From Desulfobacteraceae bacterium (lineage in GTDB: Bacteria > Desulfobacterota > DSM-4660 > Desulfatiglandales > B25-G16), in assembly GCA_028572035.1 (NCBI GenBank), contig JAPVWE010000001.1, positions 1 to 26,581 on the forward strand: DNA of 26,581 bases. The letters run 5' to 3'. Positions 2,238-25,222 of the stretch are shown piece after piece (the stretch's first letter is position 1; each line of letters opens with the position of its first letter). Under the pieces are notes generated by a model. The model saw only the letters and a list, made by a program, of their open reading frames with translations, made no database searches and was not told where the DNA came from. The translations under genes and the position numbers were made by a program.

Positions 2238-2324
2238 GGAATTGAGGAATTGCGAATTGAGGGATTAAGGAATTAAGATATGGAATAATTGCATTTTATC
2301 TACTAATCCCTGAATCCCTAAATC
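2238..2324. repeat. Octamer tandem-repeat hairpin element
   Basis: Left arm GGAATTGA-GGAATTGC-GAATTGA-GGGATTAA-GGAATTAA (2238-2276); right arm CTAATCCC-TGAATCCC-TAAATC (2303-2324) is the reverse complement of the unit. Confidence 0.8.
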
Positions 2325-2394
2325 ATGTTGGTGATGCTTAGAATTCAGGTTAGAATTTTGTGACCATTTTGAGCATGATCTTATTGATAAGGGA

Positions 2395-2487
2395 CTAAGA
2401 TTTTGACATATTTCCTTCATAACAAGACCTCTCCACCACCTGCATTATAATATCTGAGATAACCAGGTCAATCCTGTCTTTATTATT
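2395..2487 (-). pseudogene. Degenerate response-regulator receiver domain fragment
   Basis: NNKDRIDLVISDIIM, then after a frame change GGGEVLL and MKEI, follows the receiver pattern 'DxIDLVILDxIMPxxGGxE...KEI' of hybrid kinases. No N-terminus or intact frame. Confidence 0.6.
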
Positions 2488-2722
2488 TCCTATCAAGAAT
2501 CGGCAGAGGAGCCCGGGCGTAAGCCCGTGAGTGCCTACTTTTCCCTTTTTGCAAATAGGCCCTTGAATCACAATGTGGGATTTTCCTTCTCCTGGTTGAG
2601 ACCGAAACATTTTCCACTGAGACATTTTCCACTTGAAATTATCTCCCCATTAGCAGATAGTTTTTAAAGGATGCTTATCATTATTTCACGGATCTAATAA
2701 CATTTACCTTCTCATTAGAAGA

Positions 2723-3460
2723 ATGCCAGGCATTGAATTGACAAGGAGAGGATTTTGCAGACTAATAGGCTTCGTTTGCCTTTGTGGATCTCTTTTTGTT
2801 CCTCACAGCGTTTTATCCAGTGCAAAACGAAGGTCTCTTAAACGGAAAGGAGGTAGCAGAATGCACTTACCTGATCCAATGGCAGATGGAGATGTGTCCC
2901 TTGAAAGGACAATCCATCAAAGAAGAACCATCAGATCCTTCGAGAGTAAGGCCCTCACCCCCAAGCAGTTTTCCCAGTTACTCTGGGCAGCGCAGGGAAT
3001 TACAGAGACAGGAGGATTTAAGAGGGCTGCCGCATCTGCCGGGGCACTATATCCTATGGACATTTATGGAGTGGTTGGAGGAGATTGTATCGAAAAACTG
3101 GATCCCGCCGTTTACCACTATGAGCCTACCAACCATACCATCTCCCTTGTTAGAGAGGGAGATGCCAGAAGGGATATAGCAATAGCCGCGCTGAGCCAGA
3201 TGTGGATGGCCCACGCCCCGCTGACCCTTGTCATTACCGCAGAATACAGTCGAATCATGGGTAAATATGGCCACAGGGGAGTTAGATATGCCATGATAGA
3301 GGCAGGGCACATCGGGCAAAATATCTTCCTTCAATCTCAGGCGATGGGACTGGAAGCAGGAATCGTAGGGGCCTTTGAAGACGAGAAGGTTATCGAGGTT
3401 ATGGGGATTAAGAAAACACATGAACCCCTGCTTCTCATGCCAGTTGGGTACAAGAGGTAA
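2723..3460 (+). CDS. SagB/ThcOx-family nitroreductase-like FMN dehydrogenase with Tat signal peptide and internal second start (ATG 2861)
   Basis: Motifs RRTIRSF, ASAGALYP, EAGHIGQN. N-terminal LTRRGFC plus hydrophobic stretch is Tat-like. AAGGAGGT at 2847-2854 lies 6 nt before in-frame ATG 2861. Confidence 0.88.
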   Translation: MPGIELTRRGFCRLIGFVCLCGSLFVPHSVLSSAKRRSLKRKGGSRMHLPDPMADGDVSLERTIHQRRTIRSFESKALTPKQFSQLLWAAQGITETGGFKRAAASAGALYPMDIYGVVGGDCIEKLDPAVYHYEPTNHTISLVREGDARRDIAIAALSQMWMAHAPLTLVITAEYSRIMGKYGHRGVRYAMIEAGHIGQNIFLQSQAMGLEAGIVGAFEDEKVIEVMGIKKTHEPLLLMPVGYKR

Positions 3461-3672
3461 GCCATAGCAAGGGATCTTAGTTGTTAGAACTTGATATCTT
3501 TTGGATGTCACTGTGATGTGATTCCATCCGGTTATGGATCCATTCGATTCAGGATTTTTGCAAGGAGGTTAACAATGTTTAAGAGAGTTTTTGTTTACTA
3601 ATTCCCTTCTTTTTTCTTTGCCTTTTGCAGGGCAAAAATGAAGTTCATTCCAAGATGAGAGGAGGTAGGAAG

Positions 3673-4131
3673 ATGGAAATAAAAATTACGAGCACTGCTT
3701 TTTCTGAAGGCAGCATGATTCCAAAACGCTATACATGCGATGGGGAAGATGTTTCTCCCCCTCTGGCATGGACTGGTGTTCCTGAGGGCACAAAGAGTCT
3801 TGCCCTTATCTGTGATGACCCTGATGCGCCCGTGGGAACATGGGTACATTGGGTACTCTTTAATATACCAGCAGACATGCAGGAGTTACCTGCCAACATA
3901 CCTCTGGAGAAGATCATCAAAAATGGTGCAAGACATGGAACAAACGACTTTCGAAAATTCGGTTACGGGGGCCCATGTCCTCCTGGTGGAACGCACAGAT
4001 ATTATTTCAAACTCTATGCCCTTGATACAGAGATTGATCTTGAGAGTGGAATTACTAAGGCACAATTGCTCAAGGCCATGGAAGGTCATATCTTGGCCGA
4101 AGGCCAGTTAATGGGAAGATATAAGAGGTAA
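3673..4131 (+). CDS. YbhB/YbcL family Raf kinase inhibitor-like (PEBP) protein
   Basis: PEBP motifs DPDAP, WVHW, YGGPCPP, HRY. GAGGAGGT at 3659-3666 lies 6 nt before ATG 3673. An upstream signal-peptide frame starting at ATG 3575 is disrupted (see findings). Confidence 0.92.
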   Translation: MEIKITSTAFSEGSMIPKRYTCDGEDVSPPLAWTGVPEGTKSLALICDDPDAPVGTWVHWVLFNIPADMQELPANIPLEKIIKNGARHGTNDFRKFGYGGPCPPGGTHRYYFKLYALDTEIDLESGITKAQLLKAMEGHILAEGQLMGRYKR

Positions 4132-4430
4132 ATGATACTCTTTGACCGGATAAACCTCAATTATGTCAAATTATTAGACTATTGCCAGATTCTTGACAAC
4201 TTTTCCGTCCTGCGGGTACGTGTTAGTATAATGCTTGAGATGATAACCTATTGATATTACAGGCTTATTGACCTAAAGAGAAATAATTTCCTCTATCGCA
4301 TGCAGCGGGCACACCTCTTATCATAAGTGACTGGGTGCTTGCATCTTGCATGCTAGTTGTGACAGATATAGCAGAAGACTCCAGGGAATTTATGATCAGT
4401 GATTATATGGAGAGGGCAGGCAATCCTTTT

Positions 4431-4742
4431 CAGGCTGTTGCCCAAGGCCGTTTTACAACGCGATTCTCATCAGTAGGGAACAGCGGAAAAGAATCGTATT
4501 CATGAGCTCTCGCTCAGAGCTGACATTGTAGAGGATTAGGAGGAGCATCATCTTGACAATAACAGGGGAGGCACTGAAACACTACCATTTTCCCCATAGC
4601 CCTCTTTTGCTTTAGCATAGATAAAGTCAAAATCGATCTATTCTTTAATCTTGCGTAGAAGGTGATTTTGTGGAATTCTTTTCTCAAGATTCGCGCTGTA
4701 GTAAGAGAGCTTCGGTTGATAGTTGGACTGATAACCCATCAT
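4431..4742 (-). mobile_element. Internally deleted, inactivated IS1182-family element (transposase N-terminus, DUF772-like)
   Basis: Not in the ORF track. SD AGGAG then ATG 4742: MMGYQSNYQPKLSYYSANLEKRIPQNHLLRKIKE*IDFDFIYAKAKEGYGENGSVSVPP/[fs]VIVKMMLLLILYNVSSERELMNTI. In-frame TAG at 4640-4638, frameshift at the G run 4565-4568, similarity lost near 4492. TTGGGCAACAGCC (4445-4433, minus) is a candidate right end. Confidence 0.8.
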
Positions 4743-4756
4743 GGCAAACTCCTAAT

Positions 4757-5104
4757 CTATTGATTAGAGCTTAGGTCCTCTAAGATTGATAGTCCAACTA
4801 AATAGAGTCCTTTGAATCGTCCATTTTCATCTTTGGCGATATCTCTGATCTCTGTTTCTAAGTATTCAATAGGTCTTGATGAATTAGTCGTGTAGTATTT
4901 CAGATTCAGGATGTCACCGGCCTTCAGGCGATTCAATAAACCAGAATCTTCCATTACCAATACACAGATTCCCTTCGGTGATATATCCCAGATTTTGAAT
5001 TGATAAGCAAAGGCGCTTTCACTTATTGAAAATTCTACGCTGTGGTATTGATCTATAATAATGCTTCTGGGTTTTGATCTTCTCTCTGTAAAGCTGTCTT
5101 CCAT
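4757..5104 (-). CDS. PilZ-like domain protein (putative c-di-GMP receptor)
   Basis: RRSKPR (RxxxR) and DISPKG (DxSxxG) motifs with a beta-rich pattern. ATG 5104 preceded by AAGGG is preferred over TTG 5176. Confidence 0.75.
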   Translation of the reverse strand: MEDSFTERRSKPRSIIIDQYHSVEFSISESAFAYQFKIWDISPKGICVLVMEDSGLLNRLKAGDILNLKYYTTNSSRPIEYLETEIRDIAKDENGRFKGLYLVGLSILEDLSSNQ

Positions 5105-5611
5105 AAACTGCCCTTTTATTGTTTCCACCTGGATGCATCCGAGATTCTTAGATAACGATGATTTAATTGCTTTCAAATTGCGTGCCAGAAGCTAGTTTTT
5201 TATCATCTCATTCAAAATAGGCAGAATTGAGAAAATGATTCCACCCCAGGGTTCCGGAAATATCTACTCTATCGAAGCTTCACACGATCACGTTGTAATG
5301 CATAAATAAAAGAGGTGATTTAACCGGGGAGCTCTGATGAAGGCAGGGAGTATGAAAATGCATATAAAACAGTGCATGTGTGCACAATTTTCGCTGTAAC
5401 CTGTTATTCATGCTCTTAACTTCTCGGGGACAGGTTGCAAAGGAAAGCACAAAATAGACCGAGCAGTGCAGAATTTATGATCAGGATAAGGCAACAGAGA
5501 TCCAAAAGAAAGGAAAGGGGTCAGGCGTTTTTTGAATAGAAGTTGAGCTGGCCATTTCTCTGATTTGTTCGATGCGGCGGCACAGGGTCTGACGGAGACG
5601 ACAGCCTTGTA

Positions 5612-6907
5612 TCAATCATCGAAATCGCCTTCAGGGCCCTTATCCGTCCCGATTCTGGCTGCACGCTGACGGATTTTGCCCTCTGTCCAGTCGGAGGGAT
5701 CCTCGATTCGGTTCACCTTGGCGCCGGGATCATAGGAGCCTGCCTTGAGGATGGCCTCAATTGCCAGGGGGGCCGTATCCTGTGCATTGAAGACATTGGT
5801 CAGGAGTTCATAGACAAAGTCCTCCACCCCCTTGCATATCCTCTGCCTCACCTCACGCGGCAATCCTAAGAGTTTGTTTTCAAAGGGGAGGTTGAGCTTC
5901 TTGTAATCCCCGGCCTTGATGCCCTTTGAATCTGCATAGGCCACCATCTCAGTCCACATGGCCTGTGTCATGCCCTTTTCAGGTTCCTTTAAGAATTCTC
6001 CGTTTTCATCTAAATAGGCGTTGCCGTAGTCATTGACCCTGACACCCCAGGAGATCATCTGGAGGGCCGTGGCCACGTTGGCCTTGGTGGTGCTGGTCTC
6101 CTTGGTGATCCTTCGAAGGCGTTCGGAGTTGTTCCCTGATGTCCCGTGCTGAGCACCCGATATCTTGTATTTGGCCAGGGCCTCATGAATCTCCCGCGTT
6201 AATGGTACCTGAATCCCCTGATCACTCTCCTCTATCCCATGGATGGTACCATTATTGAGCGCTATCCAGTCAGGAAAGATATCATGGGCGTTCAGGCCCT
6301 GGATCAAAAAGAGCGCCTCCTCTACCGTGGAAATACCTTCCTTGCCCTTGATCTCCCCGACCTCGGTCTCATAACCAGCCCATACGGGGATATAGGCGTT
6401 CAGGGTCAAATTGGCGAGAAGATTTCTGTCGTCAGGCAGGTGCGAGGCATCAATGGCAATGGAGGTGATGCCCGCATCAAACATAGATGGAATCTCAGTC
6501 TTGGCTGCCTCGACATCCTGATCCCCTTTAATCCCGTAATGGTCCGCGTGAATCGCTACGGGGATGGTGATGCCCAGTTCGTTGCAGACGGCATCAACCT
6601 GTCTTGCCAGATTCCAGTAATTCACTGCACAGTAAGCATCTGCTCCGCCTTCTGATTTAGCAATCTCTATGAAGATGGCGGCATTGGCCCTCTGGGCTGC
6701 CGCCAGTGCTCCGTGAATGACAAAATGATTTCTTGCGTTTGCAGCGATGGTCACCGCCTTTCCCTTGGCCATCATGGCCCGGTCTATAACCTTGCCGCTG
6801 ACGATCAAGGCCTTTGAGTGTGGAAACAGATGGGTGATATTGGGTGGGCGCCCAATCTCCAGGGCTCTTTCAAACTCTGCTGTGAATTTCTGACTCTCCA
6901 AAGGCAT
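5612..6907 (-). CDS. fba: Class II fructose-bisphosphate aldolase
   Basis: Metal-binding HADH, AIDASH, ETEVGEI, NGTIHG, AQHGTSG and KANVATALQ motifs; SD AAGGAG upstream of ATG 6907. Confidence 0.85.
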   Translation of the reverse strand: MPLESQKFTAEFERALEIGRPPNITHLFPHSKALIVSGKVIDRAMMAKGKAVTIAANARNHFVIHGALAAAQRANAAIFIEIAKSEGGADAYCAVNYWNLARQVDAVCNELGITIPVAIHADHYGIKGDQDVEAAKTEIPSMFDAGITSIAIDASHLPDDRNLLANLTLNAYIPVWAGYETEVGEIKGKEGISTVEEALFLIQGLNAHDIFPDWIALNNGTIHGIEESDQGIQVPLTREIHEALAKYKISGAQHGTSGNNSERLRRITKETSTTKANVATALQMISWGVRVNDYGNAYLDENGEFLKEPEKGMTQAMWTEMVAYADSKGIKAGDYKKLNLPFENKLLGLPREVRQRICKGVEDFVYELLTNVFNAQDTAPLAIEAILKAGSYDPGAKVNRIEDPSDWTEGKIRQRAARIGTDKGPEGDFDD

Positions 6908-7308
6908 GTTTAGCTCCTTTCCATCCTTGTTGTTCGGTGTGCCGGTGGCTTGGTTATGTTTATGAGCACAACAAGGGTATAAGTTCTACTGTTAAGATGA
7001 TTCATCATTATTCTTAGGCCAACTCACAGGCCCTGTCAAGCGGCAATTGGATCAAGGTGTGGACACCCGAGAGAAGGCCTCATTACTTGTAAGCAAGATG
7101 CTTTATGTTGCAGCCCTGTGAACGGTTAGATAAGAAATGATCAATCGTGAATCCTTTCCCAGTAGGCCTATTTCGGTTAGGATTGGGAAAATTATCCCTT
7201 GCCATGTTTCCCGATTAGTAGTATGTAAAATGCCTTTCACTGAGATGACTCCTGGTGAGATGCTACACACGACCGAAGGAGCTGCATTAGTTGCAAAAGG
7301 AGCTGTTG

Positions 7309-9381: not shown

Positions 9382-9464
9382 CCGTTCAGCCCCCACTTCT
9401 ATAATGGGGCTGGGGCAATTCGCCAAGGTGGACAGCCCCAGCCCCTGGCAGTGGTGAACGGTTA
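9379..9464. repeat. Palindromic REP/MITE-like element
   Basis: Perfect 10-bp terminal inverted repeat TAACCGTTCA (9379-9388) / TGAACGGTTA (9455-9464); internal perfect 11-bp inverted repeat GGGGCTGGGGC / GCCCCAGCCCC. Confidence 0.75.
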
Positions 9465-9488
9465 CAAAAAATCAAAAAGGAGAGAACC

Positions 9489-10184: not shown

Positions 10185-10200
10185 TTGGAAAATTTTTTTC

Positions 10201-10228
10201 TTGCATCTGAGAATCTGTAGGGTATAAC
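10201..10228 (+). promoter_or_regulatory. Candidate sigma70 promoter of rpmB
   Basis: TTGCAT (10201-10206), 16 nt spacer, TATAAC (10223-10228). Confidence 0.45.
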
Positions 10229-10346
10229 TTACCTGTCAAACAGGAAGGAAATCAACGGACATTACCTGGTAGATGGTGTTAGGTTAGAAGGCCAGACACT
10301 GATAAATATCTGCTAACAACACATTAAGGCTAAAGGAAGAAATAGA

Positions 10347-10553
10347 ATGTCTAAGGTATGTGAAATATGCGGTAAAGGACCGGTTTCAGGCCACAATGTA
10401 AGTCACGCCCACAATAAGACCAAAAGACGCTGGTTACCAAACCTTCAAAGCGTGAGGGTTAAGATAAAAGGCGGGACAAAAAAAATGAAGGTCTGCACGG
10501 GGTGTCTCAGATCAGGACTGGTATACAAAGAAGCAGTAGGCAGTAGGCAGTAA
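10347..10553 (+). CDS. rpmB: 50S ribosomal protein L28 (Cys-containing type)
   Basis: [34 protein letters not shown]...[10 protein letters not shown]. The last residues AVGSRQ* are encoded by the heptamer repeat. Confidence 0.97.
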
Positions 10554-10615
10554 GCACTTTGTATTGAGCCTGTCCCTGCTTCATACTGCATACTCCATAC
10601 TGCCTACTGTTTTTT
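10533..10615. terminator. Heptamer-repeat hairpin, probable bidirectional terminator between rpmB and rel
   Basis: GCAGTAG-GCAGTAG-GCAGTAA (10533-10553) faces CATACTG-CATACTC-CATACTG-CCTACTG (10582-10609). T6 follows on the plus strand and TTCTTT on the minus strand; the genes converge. Confidence 0.7.
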
Positions 10616-12756
10616 CAAATCCGTTCCACCTTTAAGACCTCCTTGATCTTCTTTATCTTTGAAATAATATCTCTTAATTGATTGTAATCGGAAACCTCAA
10701 TTGTAAAGGTGGATATCCCTTTCTTGTCAACTGTTGTCCGCACATCCGCATCTACAATATTAGCCTCGTTCTGGGCAAATATAGCACTCAGATTGGCCAG
10801 CATACCCTTTTTAGAGATATTGGTGATCTTCAATGTGGCCAAATAATTCACATCTTCCGAACGTTCCCATTCCACCTCCACTAAGCGATCCAGGTCAACA
10901 TCCCTAATATGCCGGCAAGCTTTTGCATGGATGGTGACCCCCCTTCCCCTGGTAATAAAACCGATAACCAGCTCCCCTGGTAATGGTTGACAGCACTTTC
11001 CAAAGCGAACGAGCATGTCACTCATCCCTTTAACCTTGATCCCGGTCTCTTCCCTTTTTCTCTTTATCCTGTGAACTATCTTCTGGACAAGGCCCTCTGA
11101 TTTATCCTCTTTTATGTCTAAATGGGGCATAAGCCGGTTCAAAACCTGCTTTGCTGAGATCTTGCCATAGCCGACACTGGCCAGCAGATCATCCACACTC
11201 TTTAGTGAAAATCTATGGATTACATCTAGAATCTGCTTGTTGTTGATGAGCCTGGATAGATTAAGATTGACTTTCCTAAGCTGCTTTTCCAAGATATTCC
11301 TGCCAATATCTATGCTCTCTTTTCTCTCCTCTTTTTTTATCCACTGTCTGATCCTGGTTCTGGCCGCGGATGTCTTGGCAAAATTGAGCCAATCTTTACT
11401 GGGTTTATGATTTTTGGAGGTAATAATCTGGACTATGTCTCCGGTTTTAAGCTGATAGCTTAAGGGGACTATTCTCTCGTTTACCTTAGCACCTGTGCAT
11501 CTGTGTCCTACCTCTGAATGGATACTATAGGCAAAATCAACCGGGGTTGCTCCCTTGGGAAATTCCTTAACCTCCCCTTTAGGCGTAAAGATATAGACCT
11601 CGCCACTGAAAAGATCGAGCCTGACTGTTTCTAAGAACTCCTTTGGGTCAGTCACGCTTTCCTGCCATTCTAACAACTGTCTCATCCATGCATATTGCCT
11701 GTCTATGTCTTTTTCCGACCCATCTCCCTCTTTATACCTCCAGTGAGAGGCAATTCCCTCTTCGGCAATTCTGTCCATATCCCACGTTCTTGTCTGTATC
11801 TCCATTCTCTCTCCCAGGGGGGTGATTACTGTGGTGTGCAAAGACTGATACATATTGGCCTTAGGCAGGGAGATATAATCCTTAAAACGACCTGTTACTG
11901 GTTTCCACATGGAATGTATCAGGCCCAGGACCTCATAGCACTCCCTTACAGAATTCACTATTATCCTGAAGGCCAGGACATCATAGACCTGTTCTATATT
12001 CAGATCCTGCTCCATCATCTTTTGATAAACACTAAAGAAATGCTTATTTCTTCCCTTTATCTTGGCCTTTATCTTGGCCTCACTCAATGTCTTGGATAAG
12101 ACCTCCTTTGTCTCCCTGATAAATTTCTCCTGTCCTTCTCGCCTCTGGGCAATACCCAATCTTATGTCCTCGTAAATCTTTGGCTCAAGATAAAAAAGGG
12201 AGAGATCCTCCAGGGTTGACTTTAGCCAGTAGATACCCAGTCTTCCAGCAAGAGGTGCATAAATATCAAGGGTTTCCTTTGCAATTACTTCCTGCTTTTC
12301 AGGGGGTTGAAAACCAAGGGTCTGCATATTATGCAATCGATCTGCCAATTTGACCAGCAGGACCCTGATATCAGTTGCCATGGCAATAATCATCTTTCTT
12401 ATATTCTCCGCCTGCTGTTCCTCTTTGCTCAAGAACCGTATCTTACTGATCTTGGTAACACCATCTACTATGGTTGTCACCTCCTTGCCGAACAGATATT
12501 CAATATCCTTTAGTTCAGCCAATGTATCCTCGACCGTGTCATGGAGAAGACCGGAGGCAATACTCACTTCGTCCATCTTCATCTTGGTAAGAATTCCAGC
12601 AACTTCCAGAGGGTGGGAAAGGTATGGTTCCCCTGATAAACGGACCTGGCCCTTGTGAACCTTGGCCGAATAGACATATGCCTTTTCGATGAAATCTATG
12701 TCTGCGGTAGGATGATAAGAAACGAGGTTTGATGTTATGTCAGTTAAGCGAATCAT
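10615..12756 (-). CDS. rel: Bifunctional (p)ppGpp synthetase/hydrolase (long RSH, Rel/SpoT)
   Basis: Intact hydrolase motifs (HxGQxRxSGEPY, LHDTVED, KLADRLHNM), synthetase (YQSLHTT, EIQTRT), TGS, CC and ACT domains. ATG 12756 (MIRLTDI) overlaps the proS 3' end. Confidence 0.95.
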   Translation of the reverse strand: MIRLTDITSNLVSYHPTADIDFIEKAYVYSAKVHKGQVRLSGEPYLSHPLEVAGILTKMKMDEVSIASGLLHDTVEDTLAELKDIEYLFGKEVTTIVDGVTKISKIRFLSKEEQQAENIRKMIIAMATDIRVLLVKLADRLHNMQTLGFQPPEKQEVIAKETLDIYAPLAGRLGIYWLKSTLEDLSLFYLEPKIYEDIRLGIAQRREGQEKFIRETKEVLSKTLSEAKIKAKIKGRNKHFFSVYQKMMEQDLNIEQVYDVLAFRIIVNSVRECYEVLGLIHSMWKPVTGRFKDYISLPKANMYQSLHTTVITPLGERMEIQTRTWDMDRIAEEGIASHWRYKEGDGSEKDIDRQYAWMRQLLEWQESVTDPKEFLETVRLDLFSGEVYIFTPKGEVKEFPKGATPVDFAYSIHSEVGHRCTGAKVNERIVPLSYQLKTGDIVQIITSKNHKPSKDWLNFAKTSAARTRIRQWIKKEERKESIDIGRNILEKQLRKVNLNLSRLINNKQILDVIHRFSLKSVDDLLASVGYGKISAKQVLNRLMPHLDIKEDKSEGLVQKIVHRIKRKREETGIKVKGMSDMLVRFGKCCQPLPGELVIGFITRGRGVTIHAKACRHIRDVDLDRLVEVEWERSEDVNYLATLKITNISKKGMLANLSAIFAQNEANIVDADVRTTVDKKGISTFTIEVSDYNQLRDIISKIKKIKEVLKVERI

Positions 12757-14503
12757 AGAGGACCTGGACAACCTCCTTTACCGCTTTAGGGGCCTTGTCT
12801 ACCGGTATCAGTCTGAGATCTGGCTTGGAGCGTATCTTGATCTCAATGGCATCTTTCTTAAGTGTTCTTAGACTGACCGTGACCCTCACAGGTATGCCAA
12901 GAAGATCGGCGTCCTTGAGTTTGAAACCTGGTCTTTCATCCCTGTCATCGATAAAGACTGTCAGGCCTAGATCACTTAGCTGCTGGCACAGATTTTCAGC
13001 CACCTCTCTAACATGGGCTTCATGCATTTCAAGGGGTAGAATCGTTACTTCAAAAGGGGAAATAGATATGGGAAAGATAATGCCATTCTCATCGTGACTC
13101 TGCTCTATAGCTGCTGCCACAATCCTGCCAATACCTATCCCATAACACCCCATAACAAAAGGAGTTTCCTGGCCATTCCTATCCAGAAAATCGGCCTTAA
13201 GGGCTGTAGAGTACTTGGTCCCTAACTTAAAGACATGGCCAACCTCTATTCCCTTACCAAACAGTAATTCACCACCACACCTGGGACATGGATCAGAGGA
13301 AGTTATCATCCTTAGGTCTGCGTAGGTCTCCACCTGAAAATCCCTGCCTTCATTTACATTAAGAATATGCTTATCCTCCTCGTTTGCCCCCATTACCATG
13401 TTTTTCATCTCCTTAAGGGCAAAATCAGCCACTTTCTTTACCTGTAAACCAATGGCTCCTGCAAAGCCCATCGGGGCACCGGTTACATCAAATACAGTTT
13501 CTGGATCTGCCATAGTGAGCTCTTGAACGTTAAGGACATTTCTTAGTTTGGTTTCGTTCAGTTCATGATCCCCCCTTACCAAAGCAGCCATTGGTCCATG
13601 CTCAGTTTGATAAATAAGGGTTTTGACCAGTTTTTCGGGCCTCACGGACAGAAACTTAGTTACTTCATCCACGGTTCTAATTCCCGGTGTATCTACAACC
13701 TGTAATTCTTCTTCTCTCTCGGTATGTTTGGAATCATCCTCCCTTGACAATATCTCCGCCTTCTCTAAGTTAGAGGCATACGGGCAATTTTGACAGCTTA
13801 CAATATCATCCTCACCGGTATCTGAGAGAACCATGAATTCATGAGAAAAACTGCCACCTATAGGCCCTGTATCAGCCTCGACTGCTCGGAATTTCAGTCC
13901 GCACCTTCTAAAAATAGCCTCGTATGCCACGTACATCCTCTCATAACTCCGGTTGGCCCCCTCTTCATCAATATCAAAGCTATAGGCATCCTTCATAATG
14001 AATTCCCGAGCCCTCATGACTCCAAATCTCGGCCTAATCTCATCCCTGAACTTTGTCTGGATCTGATACAGGTTAATGGGCAGTTGTTTGTATGAATGAA
14101 TCTCCCTTCGTACCAGATCAGTAATTACCTCCTCGTGGGTTGGGCCCAGGCATGATTCCCTGTTGTGTCGATCCCTGAACCGTAAGAGTTCTGGACCATA
14201 CTGATCCCATCGACCGCTTTCCATCCATAGATCACCTGGTTGCACCCCTGGAAGCAAGACTTCAATAGCACCAGCCCTATCCATCTCCTCCCTGACGATG
14301 CTTTCTACCCTTTTAAGGGCCCTCAAACCAAAAGGAAGATAGGTATAGATTCCTGCTGCCAGCTTTCTGATCATTCCAGCCCTGAGCATTAATTGGTGAC
14401 TTATGATCTCAGCCTCGGCCGGTGTCTCTTTGAGAGTAGGAGTAAAGAATTGTGAATATCGCCTTGAAAGAGATGTCATAATGTAGGTAACGTCATACGT
14501 CAT
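12740..14503 (-). CDS. proS: Proline--tRNA ligase (bacterial type with editing insertion)
   Basis: SHQLMLRAGMIRK, LGPTHEE, QIQTKFRDEIRPRFG, GIEVGHVFKLG, MGCYGIG. Start codon uncertain (14503 or 14479). Confidence 0.96.
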   Translation of the reverse strand: MTYDVTYIMTSLSRRYSQFFTPTLKETPAEAEIISHQLMLRAGMIRKLAAGIYTYLPFGLRALKRVESIVREEMDRAGAIEVLLPGVQPGDLWMESGRWDQYGPELLRFRDRHNRESCLGPTHEEVITDLVRREIHSYKQLPINLYQIQTKFRDEIRPRFGVMRAREFIMKDAYSFDIDEEGANRSYERMYVAYEAIFRRCGLKFRAVEADTGPIGGSFSHEFMVLSDTGEDDIVSCQNCPYASNLEKAEILSREDDSKHTEREEELQVVDTPGIRTVDEVTKFLSVRPEKLVKTLIYQTEHGPMAALVRGDHELNETKLRNVLNVQELTMADPETVFDVTGAPMGFAGAIGLQVKKVADFALKEMKNMVMGANEEDKHILNVNEGRDFQVETYADLRMITSSDPCPRCGGELLFGKGIEVGHVFKLGTKYSTALKADFLDRNGQETPFVMGCYGIGIGRIVAAAIEQSHDENGIIFPISISPFEVTILPLEMHEAHVREVAENLCQQLSDLGLTVFIDDRDERPGFKLKDADLLGIPVRVTVSLRTLKKDAIEIKIRSKPDLRLIPVDKAPKAVKEVVQVLYDSLN

Positions 14504-14578
14504 TGGTCATTAGTCATTCGTTAAAACAGGAAGTCTCTGACTCTTGATCTCATTTACCAGTGACAAATGACTATTGAC
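14491..14578. repeat. Heptamer tandem-repeat hairpin (STRR2-like) between ispG and proS
   Basis: CGTCATA-CGTCATT-GGTCATT-AGTCATT (14491-14518) faces CAGTGAC-AAATGAC-TATTGAC (14558-14578). Confidence 0.8.
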
Positions 14579-15641
14579 ATTCGCTGTAATTGACCATCTG
14601 TTTGACTTCTTTGATAAGTATCCTGGCCAGATCTGACTCAGGCACTTTTTTGATCAATCTACCCTTCTTGAACAATGTGCCATGGCCCTGTCCGCCGGCA
14701 ATGCCAATGTCGGCCTCTTTTGCCTCTCCGGGCCCATTTACGACACATCCCATAATAGCTATCTTAAGAGGGGTCGTAATCTGATCCAGGGCATTTTCAA
14801 TTGTCTCTACCAACGTAAGAAGATCTATCTGACACCTTCCGCAGGTAGGGCAGGATATAATATCCACTCCCCTCTGCCTCAGACCCAGGGCCTTCAAAAT
14901 CTCATATGCCACCTTGACTTCATCAACCGGATCACGTGTTAGAGAAACCCTGATTGTATCTCCTATGCCCTCGGATAGTAATAGTCCAATCCCTAAGGAG
15001 TTCTTAACGGTCCCTGAAACGAGGCTCCCGGCCTCGGTTACACCTAAATGCAAGGGATAGTTAACCTTCTCACTAAGAAGCCTGTATGCCGATATCATTT
15101 GCAAGACATCTGACGATTTCAGGGAAATCTTAATAAGATGGAAATCCAAATCCTCCAAGATTCTTACATGATTCATGGCACTCTCAACCATAGCATCTGG
15201 TGTCGGGTGACCATATTTTTTTAGGATAGCCCTGTTAAGAGAGCCGGAGTTAACCCCAATCCTTATAGGAATACCTTGAGATCGGGCAGCGGCAACAATC
15301 TCCCGGATTTTTTTCCTTCCACCAATGTTGCCTGGGTTCAATCTTAGACCATCAGCTCCGTTCTCTATGGCTGCCAAGGCCAGCCTGTAGTCAAAATGAA
15401 TATCGGCAATAATCGGAAGGGATACCTCAGATTTTATCTCTTTGATGGCAGAGGCGGCCTTCATATCTGGCACTGCCAGGCGAACAAGCTCACAGCCAGC
15501 ACACCTTAACCGGTCTATCTGTTTTACCGTGGCAGCTACATCCTGAGGTGGGGTATTGGTCATGGACTGCACCACTACCGGAGCTCCACCACCTATCTTT
15601 ACTCCACCGATGTCTATTTGTGTGCTGTACCGTCGTTTCAT
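14571..15641 (-). CDS. ispG: (E)-4-hydroxy-3-methylbut-2-enyl-diphosphate synthase (flavodoxin)
   Basis: VVQSMTNT, IADIHFDY, RINPGN-like RLNPGN, RIGVNSGSL, PLHLGVTEAG, SCPTCGRC, MGCVVNGPGEA. Confidence 0.97.
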   Translation of the reverse strand: MKRRYSTQIDIGGVKIGGGAPVVVQSMTNTPPQDVAATVKQIDRLRCAGCELVRLAVPDMKAASAIKEIKSEVSLPIIADIHFDYRLALAAIENGADGLRLNPGNIGGRKKIREIVAAARSQGIPIRIGVNSGSLNRAILKKYGHPTPDAMVESAMNHVRILEDLDFHLIKISLKSSDVLQMISAYRLLSEKVNYPLHLGVTEAGSLVSGTVKNSLGIGLLLSEGIGDTIRVSLTRDPVDEVKVAYEILKALGLRQRGVDIISCPTCGRCQIDLLTLVETIENALDQITTPLKIAIMGCVVNGPGEAKEADIGIAGGQGHGTLFKKGRLIKKVPESDLARILIKEVKQMVNYSECQ

Positions 15642-15799: not shown

Positions 15800-15835
15800 G
15801 GCGATTTCCCCTCATCCTTAACTTACGATTTTCTC

Positions 15836-15865
15836 TTGCACTATATGCCCATATTCTGGTACATT
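15836..15865 (+). promoter_or_regulatory. Candidate sigma70 promoter of DUF1844-ispE
   Basis: TTGCAC (15836-15841), 18 nt spacer, extended -10 TGgTACATT (TG 15857-15858; -10 at 15860-15865). Back-to-back with the ispG promoter. Confidence 0.5.
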
Positions 15866-15943
15866 TATAAAAGTAAGTTAGCAAATTTAATATGAAAAAT
15901 TTGAAGTCTAATAGGCGCATTTGCTTCTTTAAAGGAGGAAGAC

Positions 15944-17250: not shown

Positions 17251-17271
17251 AAATGTTTTACAAAAAATAAT

Positions 17272-17374
17272 ATCAAATTCCAAAGCTCAAAGTTCAAATG
17301 AATGTCAAATGACAAATTACAAAAATTGATAGGTTTGTGCTTTATTTGGCCTTTGGATTTTGGAATTTGGCATT
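17272..17374. repeat. Heptamer tandem-repeat hairpin upstream of tRNA-Gln
   Basis: ATCAAAT-TCCAAAG-CTCAAAG-TTCAAAT...GTCAAAT-GACAAAT-TACAAAA faces TTTATTT-GGCCTTT-GGATTTT-GGAATTT-GGCATT. Confidence 0.75.
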
Positions 17375-17381
17375 AAATGAT

Positions 17382-17456
17382 TGGGGTGTCGTCAAGCGGT
17401 AAGACACGGGCCTTTGGAGCCCGCATTCGGAGGTTCGAATCCTCCCACCCCAGCCA
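17382..17456 (+). tRNA. tRNA-Gln (TTG)
   Basis: Full cloverleaf: acceptor TGGGGTG/CACCCCA (U1-A72), D arm GTC..GAC, anticodon stem CGGGC/GCCCG with loop CT-TTG-GA, T arm GGAGG-TTCGAAT-CCTCC, discriminator G, encoded CCA. Usual position between ispE and prs. Confidence 0.98.
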
Positions 17457-17501
17457 AAAAAGAGGACCACTTTTACGTTAGAGGAGCAAAGGGAAGATCC
17501 T

Positions 17502-18452: not shown

Positions 18453-18502
18453 ATAGCTTGGTTCAAGCAGTTGTAACTCAGATGAGTTATTGGAGGTAAT
18501 AT

Positions 18503-19135
18503 ATGGCTACTATGCAATTAGACACTACAATAAGAACCCAGACAGGTAAAGGCCCGGCCCGGAGGCTGAGAAGTGCGGGCAAGCTTCCCGCCATATTTTA
18601 TGGGCCAAAGACAGACCCCATCATGCTTTCTCTAGATTATGAACAGATCAAGAAGATGCTCAAAGGAAAATCTGCTGAAAGTATAATATTTGATCTAATG
18701 ATAGATTCCGATGAAAAGGGTCAATCCAAAAAAGTCATGATAAAAGAGATACAGAGGGATCCGGTTACAAGGGATTACCTTCATGTAGATCTTTACGAGA
18801 TAGCCATGGAAAAAGAACTAGAGGTAAATATTCCTGTCTATCTCATAAACACACCGATAGGGGTAAGCGAGGGAGGTATTTTGCAGCATATGCGGAGGGA
18901 GTTAGGGGTATTGTGTATGCCAAAAGATCTGGTAGACAAAATAGATGTTGATGTATCTGGTCTTGATATCGGACAGTCACTTCATATAGAGGATATTTCT
19001 TTTCCTCCGGGGTTGAAATCAACAGAAGATTTAAGTCTCACCATTGCCACCGTGGTTGCCCCGACGATAACCGCCGAGGAAGAAGAGGTAGAGGAAACTG
19101 AAGGTGAGGAAATAGAAGGCGAAAAGGAATCTTAA
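18503..19135 (+). CDS. rplY: 50S ribosomal protein L25/general stress protein Ctc
   Basis: GKGPARRLR..GKLPAIFYG, KEIQRDPV..LHVDLY, P.GVSEGG, DVSGLDIG, acidic tail; SD GGAGGT. Confidence 0.96.
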   Translation: MATMQLDTTIRTQTGKGPARRLRSAGKLPAIFYGPKTDPIMLSLDYEQIKKMLKGKSAESIIFDLMIDSDEKGQSKKVMIKEIQRDPVTRDYLHVDLYEIAMEKELEVNIPVYLINTPIGVSEGGILQHMRRELGVLCMPKDLVDKIDVDVSGLDIGQSLHIEDISFPPGLKSTEDLSLTIATVVAPTITAEEEEVEETEGEEIEGEKES

Positions 19136-19139
19136 AGGC

Positions 19140-19730
19140 ATATACCTGATAGTAGGGCTCGGTAATCCAGGTATTCAATACAGAAGCTGTAGACATAACC
19201 TTGGATTTAAGGCGGTTGATCTTTTACGTAAAGAATTAGGCCTTCATTTGTCTGATCAACGCTTTCAAGCCTTAAGCACAAGCACGAATTACCATGATGA
19301 GAAGATAGTATTGGCCTGCCCACAAACCTTTATGAATAGATCCGGTCTTGCAGTTAGACATTTAGTAGAATATTACAAACCAGAGATCAGAAACATAATG
19401 ATTGTCCATGATGATATTGATTTGGATGTTGGTCGCATAAAGATTATCCCCGGAGGGGGGGCAGGAGGTCATCATGGGATAGAGTCTGTGATCTATCATC
19501 TTGGAACAAATGGATTCAACAGGACCAAGATCGGAATAGGGCGGCCAAGATATAATGAACCGATTGAGGGTTTTGTTTTGAATCCCCTGTATGACGATCA
19601 AAAGAAAACAATGAAAGATGTACTTCATGTGGTAATACAGGGCCTTAAGTCATTCATTTTGGATGGAGTGGAGGCGGCAATGAATAACTTCAATTCTTTG
19701 ACCATGAGAAAAAAGGAGGTAGAAAGATAA
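19140..19730 (+). CDS. pth: Peptidyl-tRNA hydrolase (non-canonical start; track ORF from 19248 is truncated)
   Basis: In frame with the track ORF, the upstream sequence reads (I)[22 protein letters not shown]. Also [32 protein letters not shown]. No ATG/GTG/TTG between the in-frame TAG 19113-19115 and 19248. Confidence 0.9.
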
Positions 19731-21799: not shown

Positions 21800-21810
21800 A
21801 AATATTGTAA

Positions 21811-21837
21811 ACCTCAATCCGCTTGCGGCGGACCTCA
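21811..21837. repeat. Micro-palindrome flanked by a 6-bp direct repeat
   Basis: ACCTCA-[ATCCGCTTGCGGCGG]-ACCTCA; hairpin TCCGC-TTGCG-GCGGA (21818-21832). Confidence 0.6.
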
Positions 21838-21899
21838 TAGAGGAAATATTGTGTTTTCTCGATTGAATATCTAACTACGTAGGGTGAGAGGAGGCAGCA

Positions 21900-22403
21900 A
21901 TGTTTAAGGTAGGGGATTTGGCAGTGTATCCAGCACATGGTGTTGGCGTTATTGAGAGAATTGAAAATAGGAAAATTTCAGGTTGTCAGGAAGATTTCTT
22001 TGTCATGAGAATACTTGAGAACAATATGATTATTATGATCCCGTCTTCAAACGCTGAAAATGTTGGATTAAGACAAATTATAGACCAGAACGAGGTACTA
22101 AAGGTTTACGCCATACTTAAAGAGAGAGAGAGATCTGTAGATGGTAGTCAGACCTGGAACAGACGTTATAGAGATTACATGGATAAGATTAAAAGCGGCT
22201 CTGTCTTTGAGATTGCAGAAGTCTATCGCGACTTAAGTACAATACAACAGGATAAAGAGCTATCCTTTGGAGAAAGAAAGATGTTGGATACAGCCCGAAG
22301 TTTGCTTGTAAAGGAGATCTCCCTTGCTAAGAACATGAAGGAAGAAGATGTGGAAAGAGATATTCAATCGAATCTCTTTGTACAGACCGTGGATAAAGAG
22401 TAA
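21900..22403 (+). CDS. carD: CarD/CdnL family RNA polymerase-binding regulator
   Basis: MFKVGDLAVYPAHGVG, conserved Trp in QTWNRRYR, LSFGERKML..AR..LVKEI; SD GAGGAGG. Confidence 0.93.
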   Translation: MFKVGDLAVYPAHGVGVIERIENRKISGCQEDFFVMRILENNMIIMIPSSNAENVGLRQIIDQNEVLKVYAILKERERSVDGSQTWNRRYRDYMDKIKSGSVFEIAEVYRDLSTIQQDKELSFGERKMLDTARSLLVKEISLAKNMKEEDVERDIQSNLFVQTVDKE

Positions 22404-22427
22404 GGCCTGCGTTAATAGAAAACTGTG

Positions 22428-22594
22428 GTAAACCCCGTTAGAAAGCTTAAAACAAGCTTTAGAACTGACTCAAACTTATTAGTTCTTTCTGCCATAAATG
22501 GTTTACCCCGTTAGATAAAATCAATCAAATGGGACGAACCCTGGATAATATTTCATATCTAACGGGGCGAGGCCTTCTTTCTAACAGGGTAAAC
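22428..22594. repeat. Nested palindromic element (CCCCGTTAGA / TCTAACGGGG family)
   Basis: Outer arms ACCCCGTTAGAAAG (22432-22445) / CTTTCTAACAGGGT (22577-22590), 13 of 14 pairing. Inner arms CCCCGTTAGATA (22506-22517) / TATCTAACGGGG (22556-22567), perfect. Confidence 0.8.
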
Positions 22595-22597
22595 GCC

Positions 22598-23584
22598 GTG
22601 CAGAAAACCTTTATCTTTCATCAATCATCACCAGATATAGATGTAAGGCTTGACAAATTTCTCTCCGCTAACAGAGATGTGGATTTGGCCAGGTCCAGGG
22701 TTCAGAATCTCATTAAGATCGGTGCAGTAACAGTTAATGGTGAGAAGAAAAAGCCTAGTTATCAACTAAGACCTGGCGATAGGATAAGGGTTTCATTTTT
22801 ACCCCCATCGGTCCTTTTTGAGGCATCTGAGAACATAGAGTTCGGTCTTCTTTACGAAGATAACTCGATTTTGGTAGTTAACAAACCTCCAGGTCTGGTA
22901 GTTCATCCTTCTGCTGGCCATCATACAGGAACTCTGGTCCATGGCCTTCTCCGCAAATGTACTAATCTCTCTTCCTTTGGTGGTCCGGTAAGGCCGGGGA
23001 TTGTCCACAGGCTTGATAGAGATACGTCAGGCGTGATGGTAGTAGCTAAGACAGATCGGGCCCACAAATTCTTGGCTCATCAATTCAAAAGAAGGGAGGT
23101 AAAGAAAGAATATCTGGCCCTTGTCCACGGCAACGTAGAAAAAGACAGGGGAATGATGGATTTACCTATCAGGAGGCACCCGGTAAAAAGAAAAGAGATG
23201 CACATCTCCCTTTTAGAGGGTAGAACGGCCATGACCCAGTGGGAGGTCATATCTGTTTTTTCTCTTGGTTTTTCGCTGTTGAAAATAAGCCCCTCTACTG
23301 GTAGAACTCACCAGATAAGAGTTCATATGGCATATATGGGTTATCCGGTAGTAGGTGATGGTGTGTATGGGTACGGAAAAAGATGGTGGAAGCAACAGTC
23401 TTCGATAGTTAAGGAGGCCCTCACGTTGGCAAAAAGGCAGATGCTCCATGCCGAATTATTGGGATTTGTTCATCCTGATTCAATGAGATATGTAGAATTT
23501 CAGGCCCCTCTTCCAATGGATATGGTCTGCCTACTGAAATGGCTAAATGAGAATCAAAAACCAAAAATGCTAAATAACTTGTAA
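22598..23584 (+). CDS. rluD: RluA-family pseudouridine synthase with S4 domain (RluD-like)
   Basis: RLDKFL S4 domain, VVNKPPGLVVHP, catalytic HRLDRDTSG, TGRTHQIRVH, RQMLHA. The track start ATG 22529 lies inside the repeat; GTG 22598 with AGGGT 7 nt upstream is preferred. Confidence 0.9.
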   Translation: MQKTFIFHQSSPDIDVRLDKFLSANRDVDLARSRVQNLIKIGAVTVNGEKKKPSYQLRPGDRIRVSFLPPSVLFEASENIEFGLLYEDNSILVVNKPPGLVVHPSAGHHTGTLVHGLLRKCTNLSSFGGPVRPGIVHRLDRDTSGVMVVAKTDRAHKFLAHQFKRREVKKEYLALVHGNVEKDRGMMDLPIRRHPVKRKEMHISLLEGRTAMTQWEVISVFSLGFSLLKISPSTGRTHQIRVHMAYMGYPVVGDGVYGYGKRWWKQQSSIVKEALTLAKRQMLHAELLGFVHPDSMRYVEFQAPLPMDMVCLLKWLNENQKPKMLNNL

Positions 23585-23590
23585 AATCCC

Positions 23591-23619
23591 TTGACATAAA
23601 GGTATTGGAGCTATATTAT
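23591..23619 (+). promoter_or_regulatory. sigma70 promoter of rho
   Basis: TTGACA (23591-23596), 17 nt spacer, TATTAT (23614-23619). Confidence 0.7.
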
Positions 23620-23862
23620 ATTAGGTGCTCTATACATCCACAAGAAATGCATTCCTTGCTAGATTAAGTTATTAACCCTTTCATCTTTGAAGGTCTGCTT
23701 AACAATCGGCGTTTACTCATAATCTTCAAGAATAAAGAAATTATAGTAGAGTGCCTCGTTTGAGGTTACAGACTGCATTTCTCTTTTTTGCCAAGCTGGC
23801 CAAAAAAGCGGTAAAAGGATAATAATAATAAATATATTCAGATCTATGAGGTATAGTAAGAG

Positions 23863-25110
23863 ATGAACTTACTGGAGCTTAAAGGCAAGAATATAGGTGA
23901 ATTGATAGGTATGGCTAAGACATTCGGAATTGGTGGTGCTGCTGGTATGCGAAAGCAGGATCTCATTTTCTCTCTCTTGCAGGCCCAGACAGAACAAAAT
24001 GGTGTCATTTATGGGGAAGGGGTGTTGGAGATCCTGCCAGATGGCTTTGGTTTTCTCAGGTCACCAGATTCTAACTACCTTCCCGGGCCAGACGATATGT
24101 ATGTCTCGCCATCCCAAATAAGACGATTCACCTTAAGGACAGGAGATACTGTTTCAGGACAGATAAGACCACCAAAGGAAGGGGAAAGATACTTTGCTTT
24201 GCTAAAGGTAGAGCATATCAACTATGACGATCCAGAAGCAGCTGCAGATAAGATACTCTTTGATAATATGACTCCTCTTTACCCGACGGAGCGAATAAGA
24301 CTAGAGTCAGACCCTGATAACCTTTCGACAAGGATCATGGATCTAATGACCCCAATAGGAAAAGGGCAGAGAGGATTGATTGTCTCTCCCCCCAGAACAG
24401 GAAAGACAATGCTTCTTAAAGACATTGCGAACGCAGTTACCGCAAACCATCCGGATATACATAAAATAGTCCTTTTGATTGACGAGAGACCTGAAGAAGT
24501 TACTGATATGGCCCGCTCTGTGGAGGCTGAAGTTATTAGCTCGACCTTTGATGAGCCTCCTCAACGTCATGTGCAGGTAGCTGAGATGGTTATAGAAAAG
24601 TCCAAGAGATTGGTCGAGCATAAAAAGGATGTCCTTATTCTCTTGGACAGCATTACTCGTCTGGCTAGGGCCTATAACACCGTTGTTCCACCAAGTGGCA
24701 AGATATTATCCGGGGGCGTTGATTCAAATGCCCTCCATCGGCCGAAGAGATTTTTCGGGGCCGCCAGGAACCTTGAGGAGGGAGGAAGTCTGACCATAAT
24801 TGCCACCGCCTTGATTGATACGGGGAGCAGAATGGATGAGGTAATCTTTGAAGAGTTCAAAGGTACTGGTAATATGGAGCTCAATCTCGACAGAAAACTG
24901 AGCGACAGGCGAATATTTCCTGCTGTGGACATCAATCGTTCAGGAACAAGGAAGGAGGAACTCTTGATTGAGGAAGAAGATCTCAATCGTATCTGGATCC
25001 TCCGTAAACTCCTTGCCCCTCTTACACAGGTTGATAATATGGAATTCCTATTAGATAAAATACAAGGAACGAAGACCAATAAGGAGTTTTTGGCATCAAT
25101 GAATCAATGA
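23863..25110 (+). CDS. rho: Transcription termination factor Rho
   Basis: GFGFLR, [12 protein letters not shown], [40 protein letters not shown]. Confidence 0.98.
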
Positions 25111-25122
25111 TTTGTGTTTCTT

Positions 25123-25222
25123 GGGTTTGTCGGGTTTGTTGCCTTAATTTTAGGCACTTTAGGTCACTTTAGGCCTGCCCGTCCCGCTCTGCGGGACGAG
25201 GCGGGCGGGCACTTATAACTTT
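25123..25222. repeat. Composite repeat: 9-10-nt tandem units interrupted by a nested GC palindrome
   Basis: GGGTTTGTC-GGGTTTGTT; TTTAGGCAC-TTTAGGTCAC-TTTAGGC-[36-nt insert 25175-25210]-AC. Insert stem CCTGCC-CG-TCCCGC-TCT-GCGGGA-CG-A-GGCGGG. Confidence 0.7.

Follow-up and report, generated by a model that had tools for sequence, protein, structure and literature searches.

Paired tandem-repeat hairpins at gene junctions of a Desulfobacteraceae bacterium are probably gene-less forms of small insertion cassettes

Tandem-repeat sites in the analysed stretch

The stretch of DNA analysed here, called the window, comprises 26,581 nucleotides of a Desulfobacteraceae bacterium (assembly GCA_028572035.1, contig JAPVWE010000001.1, positions 1 to 26,581) and contains short tandem-repeat arrays at five gene junctions, designated sites A to E (Table 1). 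Site A is flanked by a permease-like gene on one side and a 76-aa open reading frame (ORF) on the other, site B lies between the convergent genes rpmB and rel, site C between ispG and proS, site D between ispE and tRNA-Gln and site E between rho and rpmE. Direct reading of the sequence, Tandem Repeats Finder and an inverted-repeat search were used to inspect the sites, and all three agree. They reproduce the five arrays of the initial annotation, four of them as hairpins in which an array is followed by a spacer and the reverse-complement array, and the fifth (site E) without a second arm. The placement of two arrays on the stop codons of rpmB and ispG, and of a third against a tRNA gene, was likewise found as first described. 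The sites are discussed below as probable relatives of small mobile cassettes that carry a gene of the 23S rRNA intervening-sequence (IVS) type.

Arm pairing in the inverted-repeat search differed between the sites. The arms of site A are 76% complementary and 36 nt apart, while site B has 34-nt arms that are 79% complementary and separated by 20 nt, the left one containing the rpmB stop. At site C, the right arm of which contains the ispG stop, 16 nt are 88% complementary at a distance of 41 nt. Site D forms an inverted pair of two 42-nt arms (17268-17309 and 17334-17375) with 74% complementarity and a spacing of 24 nt. No inverted partner array was found for site E in the inverted-repeat search of the window. 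Its third unit is interrupted by a GC-rich palindrome that holds an inner 15-nt palindrome, and the unit picks up again at 25210-25219.

The cassette arms also serve as coding sequence. Ribosomal protein L28 (10347-10553, 68 aa) has its tail and stop within the site B arm, and ispG (14571-15641) is five codons longer than in relatives without site C. The longest frame of proS (12740-14503) begins at a repeat-made ATG at 14503, and the relatives align from the ATG at 14479. The last base of the T6 run behind site B, 10615, is shared with the rel stop codon (10615-10617, minus strand), of which it is the first base.

Table 1. Positions and composition of the repeat arrays and adjoining features in the window
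Feature	Position	Strand	Description	Basis or further remark
Site A left array	2238-2274		GGAATTRA-type units, period 8, 4.8 copies	Tandem Repeats Finder, inverted-repeat pairing
Site A right array	2305-2324		AATCCCTR units, reverse complement of the site A left array	Tandem Repeats Finder, inverted-repeat search
Site B left array	10533-10556		CAGTAGG-type units	Encodes final rpmB codons and stop (10551-10553)
Site B right array	10582-10609		CATACTG/CCTACTG units	Tandem Repeats Finder, inverted-repeat search
T6 run	10610-10615	+	Directly 3' of the site B hairpin	With the stem, an rpmB terminator-like structure
Site C left array	14491-14521		GTCATTN units	Adjoins probable proS start (ATG at 14479, minus strand)
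Site C loop	14522-14562		Non-repetitive	Conserved among dispersed copies of the site C family (10 copies, 6 genomes)
Site C right array	14563-14578		AATGAC-type units	Supplies final ispG codons and stop (14571-14573)
Site D left arm	17268-17323		YCAAATG / AAAGCTCAAAG units	Tandem Repeats Finder array 17301-17323
Site D right arm	17334-17375		ATTTGGM units, end 7 nt before tRNA-Gln	Tandem Repeats Finder array 17344-17374
tRNA-Gln(TTG)	17382-17456	+	Neighbour of site D	ARAGORN, Rfam
Site E first units	25112-25143		GTTTSTTG-type units, just past the rho stop (25108-25110)	Same units at rho/rpmE in relatives G001 and G007
Site E array	25149-25174		TTTAGGCAC units, period 9-10, 2.8 copies	Solo arm of the AAAGTGCCT / ACTTTAGGCAC family
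Nested GC-rich palindrome	25174-25209		36 nt, CCTGCCCG...CGGGCGGG	Splits the third site E unit between TTTAGG and CACTT

Genome-wide abundance and sequence families

The assembly is a metagenome-assembled genome (MAG) of 1.70 Mb in 369 contigs, with 44% G+C and about 81% completeness. Arrays with periods of 7, 8 and 9 nt were counted 222, 131 and 177 times, compared with ~29, ~39 and ~37 in third-order Markov simulations, so that period-7 arrays reach about seven times the simulated count. By location, 147 of the period-7 arrays are intergenic, 23 lie at gene edges and 49 in coding sequence. An inverted partner at a distance of no more than 160 nt was detected for 131 arrays, compared with 11 in each of two controls. 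One hundred distinct array/spacer/inverted-array cassettes were obtained in 1.7 Mb, of which ~8% are expected to be false. The proposal of one common design built from several unit families is borne out by this census.

The repeat units recur in multi-copy families, and polarity is nearly constant within each of them. The window sites belong to the families CAGTAGG/AGTAAGC (B), YCAAATG (D), GTCATTN (C), AAAGTGCCT/ACTTTAGGCAC (E) and GGAATTRA (A); further families in the genome are GTTCAGG, ACGCAGAT, CACCAAGR, TGGAATRATGG and TAACGAG. Significant matches elsewhere in the genome were obtained for all five window sites. The whole 95-nt cassette of site C, including its loop, is found with 74-90% identity at no fewer than 10 non-orthologous loci in 6 genomes, and its match on contig C86 reaches 84.5% over 71 nt. 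Homologs of the entire site A cassette are present in three relatives (G014, G010 and G011), the site E family occupies at least 15 loci in this genome, and the site D arm is 97.7% identical over 43 nt to the arm of an element on contig C28 that carries a four-helix-bundle gene. The number of units per array is variable: the site D unit is duplicated in one metagenome, and the arms of an element in relative G009 hold ~20 units as opposed to 5. The initial annotation had described a shared architecture without a shared sequence. The units do differ among the five sites, but the existence of multi-copy families and the conserved loop of site C contradict the more general statement.

Small genes between the arms

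Both TIGR02436 genes of this genome (contigs C28 and C83) are enclosed by inverted YCAAATG arrays of the site D type, and identity between the two elements, arms included, is 83%. Intact GxxExxY genes are located between CGCAAAGRA arrays on contig C194 and between ACGCAGAT arrays on contig C145, and a truncated GxxExxY copy on contig C32 sits inside ACGCAGAT arms like those of C145. The corresponding Pfam families are PF05635 (23S rRNA-IVS protein) for the four-helix-bundle proteins and PF13366 (PD-(D/E)XK) for the GxxExxY proteins. Among 20 relatives, inverted arrays were present on both sides of 21 of the 27 four-helix-bundle genes and of 10 of the 16 GxxExxY genes; each of the two controls (reverse and complement) hit the threshold score once in 43 loci. 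In the window genome, 13 of 251 small genes reached the flanking-array score, and four of these 13 are cargo genes. Gene-bearing forms were also identified for the site B family in G010, for the site E family in G006 and for the site C family in G009 (contig C322). The flanking of such genes by similar arrays had been suggested in the initial annotation; it is seen here in the genome itself and in its relatives, and the description of the window sites as "empty" cassettes stands, as cargo genes occur within the same arm families. One window ORF (4757-5176) scored 13 in the control test; it is a PilZ-like gene without arrays and was dismissed as a chance match.

Arm family and protein lineage vary together. 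Four-helix-bundle proteins of different genomes that are at least 75% identical share the arm family in four of four pairs, and pairs below 60% identity have essentially no arm sequence in common. These sequence comparisons indicate that the arms are inherited jointly with the cargo gene, which makes the mechanism first invoked, one that builds arrays afresh at each site, unneeded. A sequence search against solved structures returned a single entry, the uncharacterised 2gsc, as a match to the four-helix-bundle protein; the GxxExxY protein had no match.

Deletion derivatives and nested palindromes

Gene-less copies outnumber gene-bearing ones by roughly 20 to 1 in this genome. Those with ACGCAGAT arms still contain the leader and initial codons of the C145 element as well as its trailer, and their breakpoints relative to that element are 56/406 (C27), 69/406 (C298), 90/415 (C122) and 130/379 (C32). 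The cassettes are dispersed, heritable as units and tied to the gene-bearing forms by this deletion series. Spacers of the CACCAAGR cassettes open with a short conserved ATG-led segment (ATGAGTTTTACCCC) that, by eye, looks like the remnant of a gene start. The relatives hold many partial or stop-containing matches to four-helix-bundle and GxxExxY genes, and such sequences would fit ongoing decay.

The GC-rich palindrome of site E belongs to a family (CCTGCCCG...CGGGCGGG, 24-77 nt) with 36 intergenic copies, six of which are found in the same context as at site E. Besides the window, copies are present on contigs C27, C47, C97, C262, C369 and ~30 others. They recur in three fixed contexts within other cassette families and often hold nested palindromes of their own, TCCCGCTCTGCGGGA and TTCCGAATTCCGGAACTCGGAA, so that they look REP-like (repetitive extragenic palindromic) and layered like Russian dolls. 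The idea that nested elements target the apex of the host hairpin was rejected, as the GC palindrome is found within arm units and where arm and spacer meet, not at the apex. In the marine-sediment population of metagenome run X10, a 35-nt palindromic insert (GGTTGA...TCAACC type) was detected within site E at 25141-25145, which is a strain-level gain or loss of a micro-element.

Turnover at orthologous junctions

The host belongs to a lineage of sulfate reducers from cold seeps. The closest proS relatives are MAGs of Desulfatiglandales and other Thermodesulfobacteriota, and a tree of concatenated proS, ispG and rel places the genome among the same Desulfatiglandales/Thermodesulfobacteriota MAGs. 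Junctions were compared between the window genome and 11 relatives, which together make up a 12-genome tree. They were found to be empty, filled, or filled by another family, and the states follow no phylogenetic pattern. The presence/absence variation asked about in the initial annotation was encountered at rpmB/rel, ispG/proS and ispE/tRNA-Gln alike.

The ispG/proS junction gave the richest series. In five genomes, more distant ones included, it consists of the stop codon, one base and the ATG; the outgroup state is a gap of ~1 nt between stop and start without a hairpin. The GTCATTN cassette is present in three genomes, one of which (G007) also has a GAAAATY-type cassette, and the latter occurs alone in four further genomes. 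In G010 (L100), the loop of the GAAAATY-type cassette contains a nested element of ~300 nt with GTTCACGG arms. This element is bordered by an 11-bp direct repeat (GATCTAACATA), which is present only once in the cassettes of G001 and G006, where nothing is nested, and may represent a target-site duplication of the nested element. At least six changes on the 12-genome tree are needed to explain the states of this junction, and well-supported sister genomes differ.

Five genomes of four genera have retained the CAGTAGG cassette at rpmB/rel. A shortened form occurs in one genome, another has a cassette of GTTTSTTG units in its place, and two lack it. The ispE/tRNA-Gln junction is empty in five genomes, filled in the window only, and occupied by a 300-nt composite in two. 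The rho/rpmE gap measures 15-41 nt in four genomes and holds various arrays in others; the window and G001 have the same array with the same nested GC palindrome.

At least 13 studies of cold seeps and marine sediment yielded metagenomes with near-identical DNA. Site B was bridged unchanged by metagenome contigs in three studies. Metagenome depth climbs 10- to 80-fold over sites D and E, and contigs end precisely at the two edges of the GC palindrome (25174 and 25209). Weak joints (sides of ~30 nt, likeness of at least 90%) were seen in run X12, where 14480-14593 is skipped, a segment covering cassette C, and in runs X6 and X10, where 25110-25208 is skipped; these were not counted as evidence.

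Origin of the cassettes

The observations are explained best, and with good probability, if the five sites belong, as forms without a gene, to a population of small IVS-type selfish insertion cassettes and are relics comparable to miniature inverted-repeat transposable elements (MITEs). Four of the sites would be complete hairpins, and site E would be a solo arm with a nested palindrome. A full-length cassette measures ~450-570 bp; tandem 7-10-nt units are followed by a short leader, a single small gene and a trailer, and the reverse complement of the first array closes the cassette. Two kinds of gene are found in it, one for a four-helix-bundle protein (PF05635/TIGR02436, "23S rRNA intervening-sequence protein") and one for a GxxExxY nuclease-like protein (PF13366/TIGR04256), and pairing of the two arrays gives a long stem from which the insert is looped out. 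Cassettes of this kind would land in short intergenic gaps, often across stop or start codons, and would turn over faster than species diverge. Internal deletion would produce hairpins of ~90-120 nt such as those of the window, and the cassettes could also host nested micro-palindromes. The stem presumably makes the insert tolerable and a flanking hairpin may favour its precise loss; mobility may proceed through a hairpin on which either the cargo protein or an enzyme supplied in trans acts. We infer that insertion, and not loss alone, creates the pattern and that sites A to E would have arisen by deletion of the gene.

A conventional explanation is that the arrays are host terminators or regulatory stem-loops that grew by replication slippage and acquired similar units through convergence or gene conversion, without any insertion. 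Every window site lies at a gene 3' end, unit copy number varies as described above, and site B has the expected appearance: its RNA hairpin reaches -42 kcal/mol (z = -7.6 versus shuffles, + strand), it is situated between convergent genes, and its stem and T6 tail are predicted, very probably correctly, to form the rpmB transcription terminator. Site D also folds stably (-32.5 kcal/mol, z = -4.6, + strand); the folds of sites A and C are weaker, with z from -1.7 to -3.4 (site A, -1.7 on the + and -2.9 on the - strand; site C, -2.5 on its transcribed - strand). Among the window sites, however, only site B has a U-tract directly after the stem-loop, and a terminator consensus scan flagged none of sites A to D. 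Genome-wide, a T-rich tail (at least five T among the first eight bases past the stem) follows one of 46 cassettes between same-strand genes, a set that does not include site B. No significant difference indicative of RNA-level selection was found either in sense versus antisense hairpin stability (25 versus 20, p = 0.3) or in G.U mismatch bias. Cassettes are spread over tandem, divergent and convergent gaps (67/20/13%) much as expected from gap length (64/24/12%). Slippage also does not account for non-repetitive loops that are conserved between distant loci, for genes within the same arms, or for the hairpin-free outgroup state of ispG/proS. Rarity outside the window, fixed orthologous sites and a lack of any cargo, named in the initial annotation as the marks of ordinary slippage-expanded terminators, are all contrary to the findings. 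This explanation is therefore largely refuted as a general account and is the most improbable one considered; some copies are nevertheless co-opted, as is site B, which is kept across genera and ends the rpmB frame. Scarcely more probable is that the arrays are iterated binding sites for post-transcriptional or translational control of the neighbouring genes, as proposed for the TAACTGA repeats of Beggiatoaceae. Heptamer arrays near start codons have been proposed as translation regulators (PMC4679880), site C lies directly on the proS start and the ispG stop, and the co-variation of arm and cargo would suit a protein that reads its own repeats. The Beggiatoaceae sets are, however, described as direct repeats pointing to start codons, with one inverted set in 170 (PMC4679880), whereas inverted pairing is the rule here. 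The cassettes show no preferred side (the median distance is 24 nt to the stop codon upstream and 43 nt to the start codon downstream), and the switching of states at one junction between sister genomes is unexpected for a conserved regulatory site.

A more serious competitor, although still an unlikely one, holds that the cassettes are passive hairpins of the REPIN type (paired REP sequences), moved in trans by an HUH transposase (Y1, IS200/RAYT-type; RAYT, REP-associated tyrosine transposase), with the cargo genes as mere passengers between the arms. RAYTs move hairpin-forming inverted pairs in intergenic DNA, and GC-rich REP-like palindromes are abundant here. The Y1_Tnp domain (PF01797) was detected in 16 of 20 relatives (G001-G012, G014 and G017-G019, with a weak match only in G019). 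Its count tracks that of the four-helix-bundle genes (Spearman 0.76, n = 21), and the three relatives without a four-helix-bundle gene have no Y1_Tnp either. Genome size, however, correlates with both counts (0.51 and 0.53), the genomes are kin, and Y1_Tnp was not found in the window genome, in an assembly that is about 81% complete. The arms, moreover, are non-palindromic tandem units unlike REP sequences, and their co-variation with the lineage of the cargo protein is not predicted if the genes are passengers. The Y1_Tnp domains of the relatives lie in open frames of ~320-350 aa, with 1-8 matches per genome.

Several points weigh against an origin of the window sites from gene-bearing insertion cassettes. 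No consistent target-site duplication was observed in comparisons of empty and filled junctions or among ten aligned site C copies, the lone case being the nested element of G010. The derivation of sites A to E from a gene-bearing parent is extrapolated by analogy from the ACGCAGAT family, and no gene-bearing counterpart of the site A family was found among 60 cargo loci and the arm matches searched. Neither cargo family (PF05635 or PF13366) is a known transposase. Site B is conserved and not variable, so that some copies at least act like ordinary host features. The MAG is fragmented and incomplete, its gene calls are crude and cover 83% of the genome as coding, and 22 of the 100 cassettes are located at contig ends, as expected of repeats, which break assemblies. 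Finally, counts across genomes are not independent because the relatives are kin.

The preferred explanation, that the sites are gene-less members of an insertion-cassette population, can be extended further, although this extension is doubtful. The array-bounded four-helix-bundle and GxxExxY cassettes might constitute a self-contained mobile class without a canonical transposase, in which the small protein reads its own arms in the manner of iterons and the folded hairpin serves as an intermediate both when a cassette inserts at a gene junction and when it is precisely lost. Recognition of this kind would account for the co-variation of arm family and protein lineage. The class would then cover the rRNA IVS as well, and the heptamer arrays of cyanobacteria, Beggiatoaceae and others would be its gene-less debris.

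Comparison with known systems

The 23S rRNA IVS are the closest relatives by content. ORF-bearing examples are known from helix 45 of Coxiella burnetii and from Leptospira, and IVS are regarded as selfish, with a sporadic distribution that suggests horizontal transfer and with mobility that is unexplained (PMC4990558). They resemble the cassettes in being inserts of ~430-760 nt with complementary ends that form a long stem around a PF05635 gene (PMC4990558). Complementary ends with a stable stem, with or without a PF05635 ORF, are likewise found here. Excision from the transcript by RNase III is a further hallmark of IVS. IVS are, however, positioned in rRNA helices, and no window site lies in helix 9, 25 or 45 of a 23S rRNA; the window cassettes are placed between protein-coding genes or next to a tRNA gene. 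Their stems are composed of degenerate 7-10-nt tandem units, and a second, unrelated cargo (GxxExxY, PF13366) has the same design. A 23S rRNA copy of the cassettes was sought, but no 23S rRNA is assembled in this genome or in its 12 nearest relatives.

Like MITEs, the cassettes are short, non-coding, multi-copy, intergenic and hairpin-forming, have inverted ends, are dispersed over non-orthologous loci and go back to a longer gene-bearing element that underwent internal deletion at several independent breakpoints. The ends of a gene-bearing parent are identified for the site D (C28 and C83) and ACGCAGAT families and are presumed for sites A, B, C and E. In contrast to MITEs, the parent has no recognisable transposase, and its ends are tandem arrays instead of unique terminal inverted repeats. 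REP sequences and REPINs are similar in forming inverted pairs of short repeats and hairpins in intergenic DNA, in tens to hundreds of copies (PMC3116915). Their units, however, are GC-rich imperfect palindromes tied to one RAYT gene (PMC3116915), whereas the arms studied here are built from non-palindromic tandem units of at least 10 families. Closer to REP sequences is the nested GC palindrome of site E.

Short tandemly repeated repetitive (STRR) sequences are the tandem heptamer repeats of cyanobacteria. The window arrays had been filed with those of heterocystous cyanobacteria, which does not hold, as the proS relatives and the tree place the host elsewhere. The family unit at site C is GTCATTN. 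TTGGTCA, the STRR2 consensus, occurs once (14503-14509) as one phase of the degenerate GTCATTN array, and the other families are unlike it. Intergenic tandem heptamer arrays as such are in large excess here, as the census shows. Heptamer repeats of the TAACTGA type have been reported from Beggiatoaceae, cyanobacteria and Bacteroidetes (PMC4679880). STRR and TAACTGA repeats share with the present arrays a unit length of mostly 7 nt, a short tandem arrangement, a strongly intergenic location, the existence of several families and a patchy distribution across phyla. They differ in that the host here is a member of the Desulfobacterota and that the arrays are paired in inverted orientation around a spacer or a gene. 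Neither cargo genes nor a series of empty and filled sites is mentioned in the parts of the TAACTGA paper searched (PMC4679880).

No description of array-bounded four-helix-bundle or GxxExxY cassettes and their gene-less forms was present in the literature searched, and we could not find mobile DNA of such a kind outside ribosomal RNA described there. Tandem heptamer arrays have been known for decades without an accepted account of their origin, and the 23S IVS are likewise selfish elements without known movement. The occurrence of the same stem-forming arrays with a 23S-IVS-type gene, with an unrelated nuclease-like gene, with remnants or with nothing between them links the two. If the proposed explanation is true, many "repeat hairpins" that are unannotated or labelled as terminators would be debris of one class of insertion element, and these elements would reshape the termini of core genes; in the window this concerns the tails of L28 and ispG and the start region of proS. 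The matched gene-bearing copies, gene-less copies and empty target sites provide material for a mobility assay.

Other features of the window

Repeats of other kinds were noted elsewhere in the window. The end of the gene for the L25/Ctc protein (19075-19119) contains an in-frame repeat of 15-18 nt (AGGTAGAGGAAACAGA-type, period 15), and one metagenome contig has two extra blocks of 18 and 15 nt, corresponding to length variation of the acidic tail. Several inverted repeats of the CCCCGTTAGATA / TATCTAACGGGG type are located at 22432-22594, upstream of and into the start of a pseudouridine synthase gene, and alternative joints in metagenomes connect 22501 to 22573 in this region with five other letters between. 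The pth frame at 19113-19250 (listed from a TTG at 19248) matches its family model only from position 46, which implies that the real start lies upstream, where no common start codon is listed.

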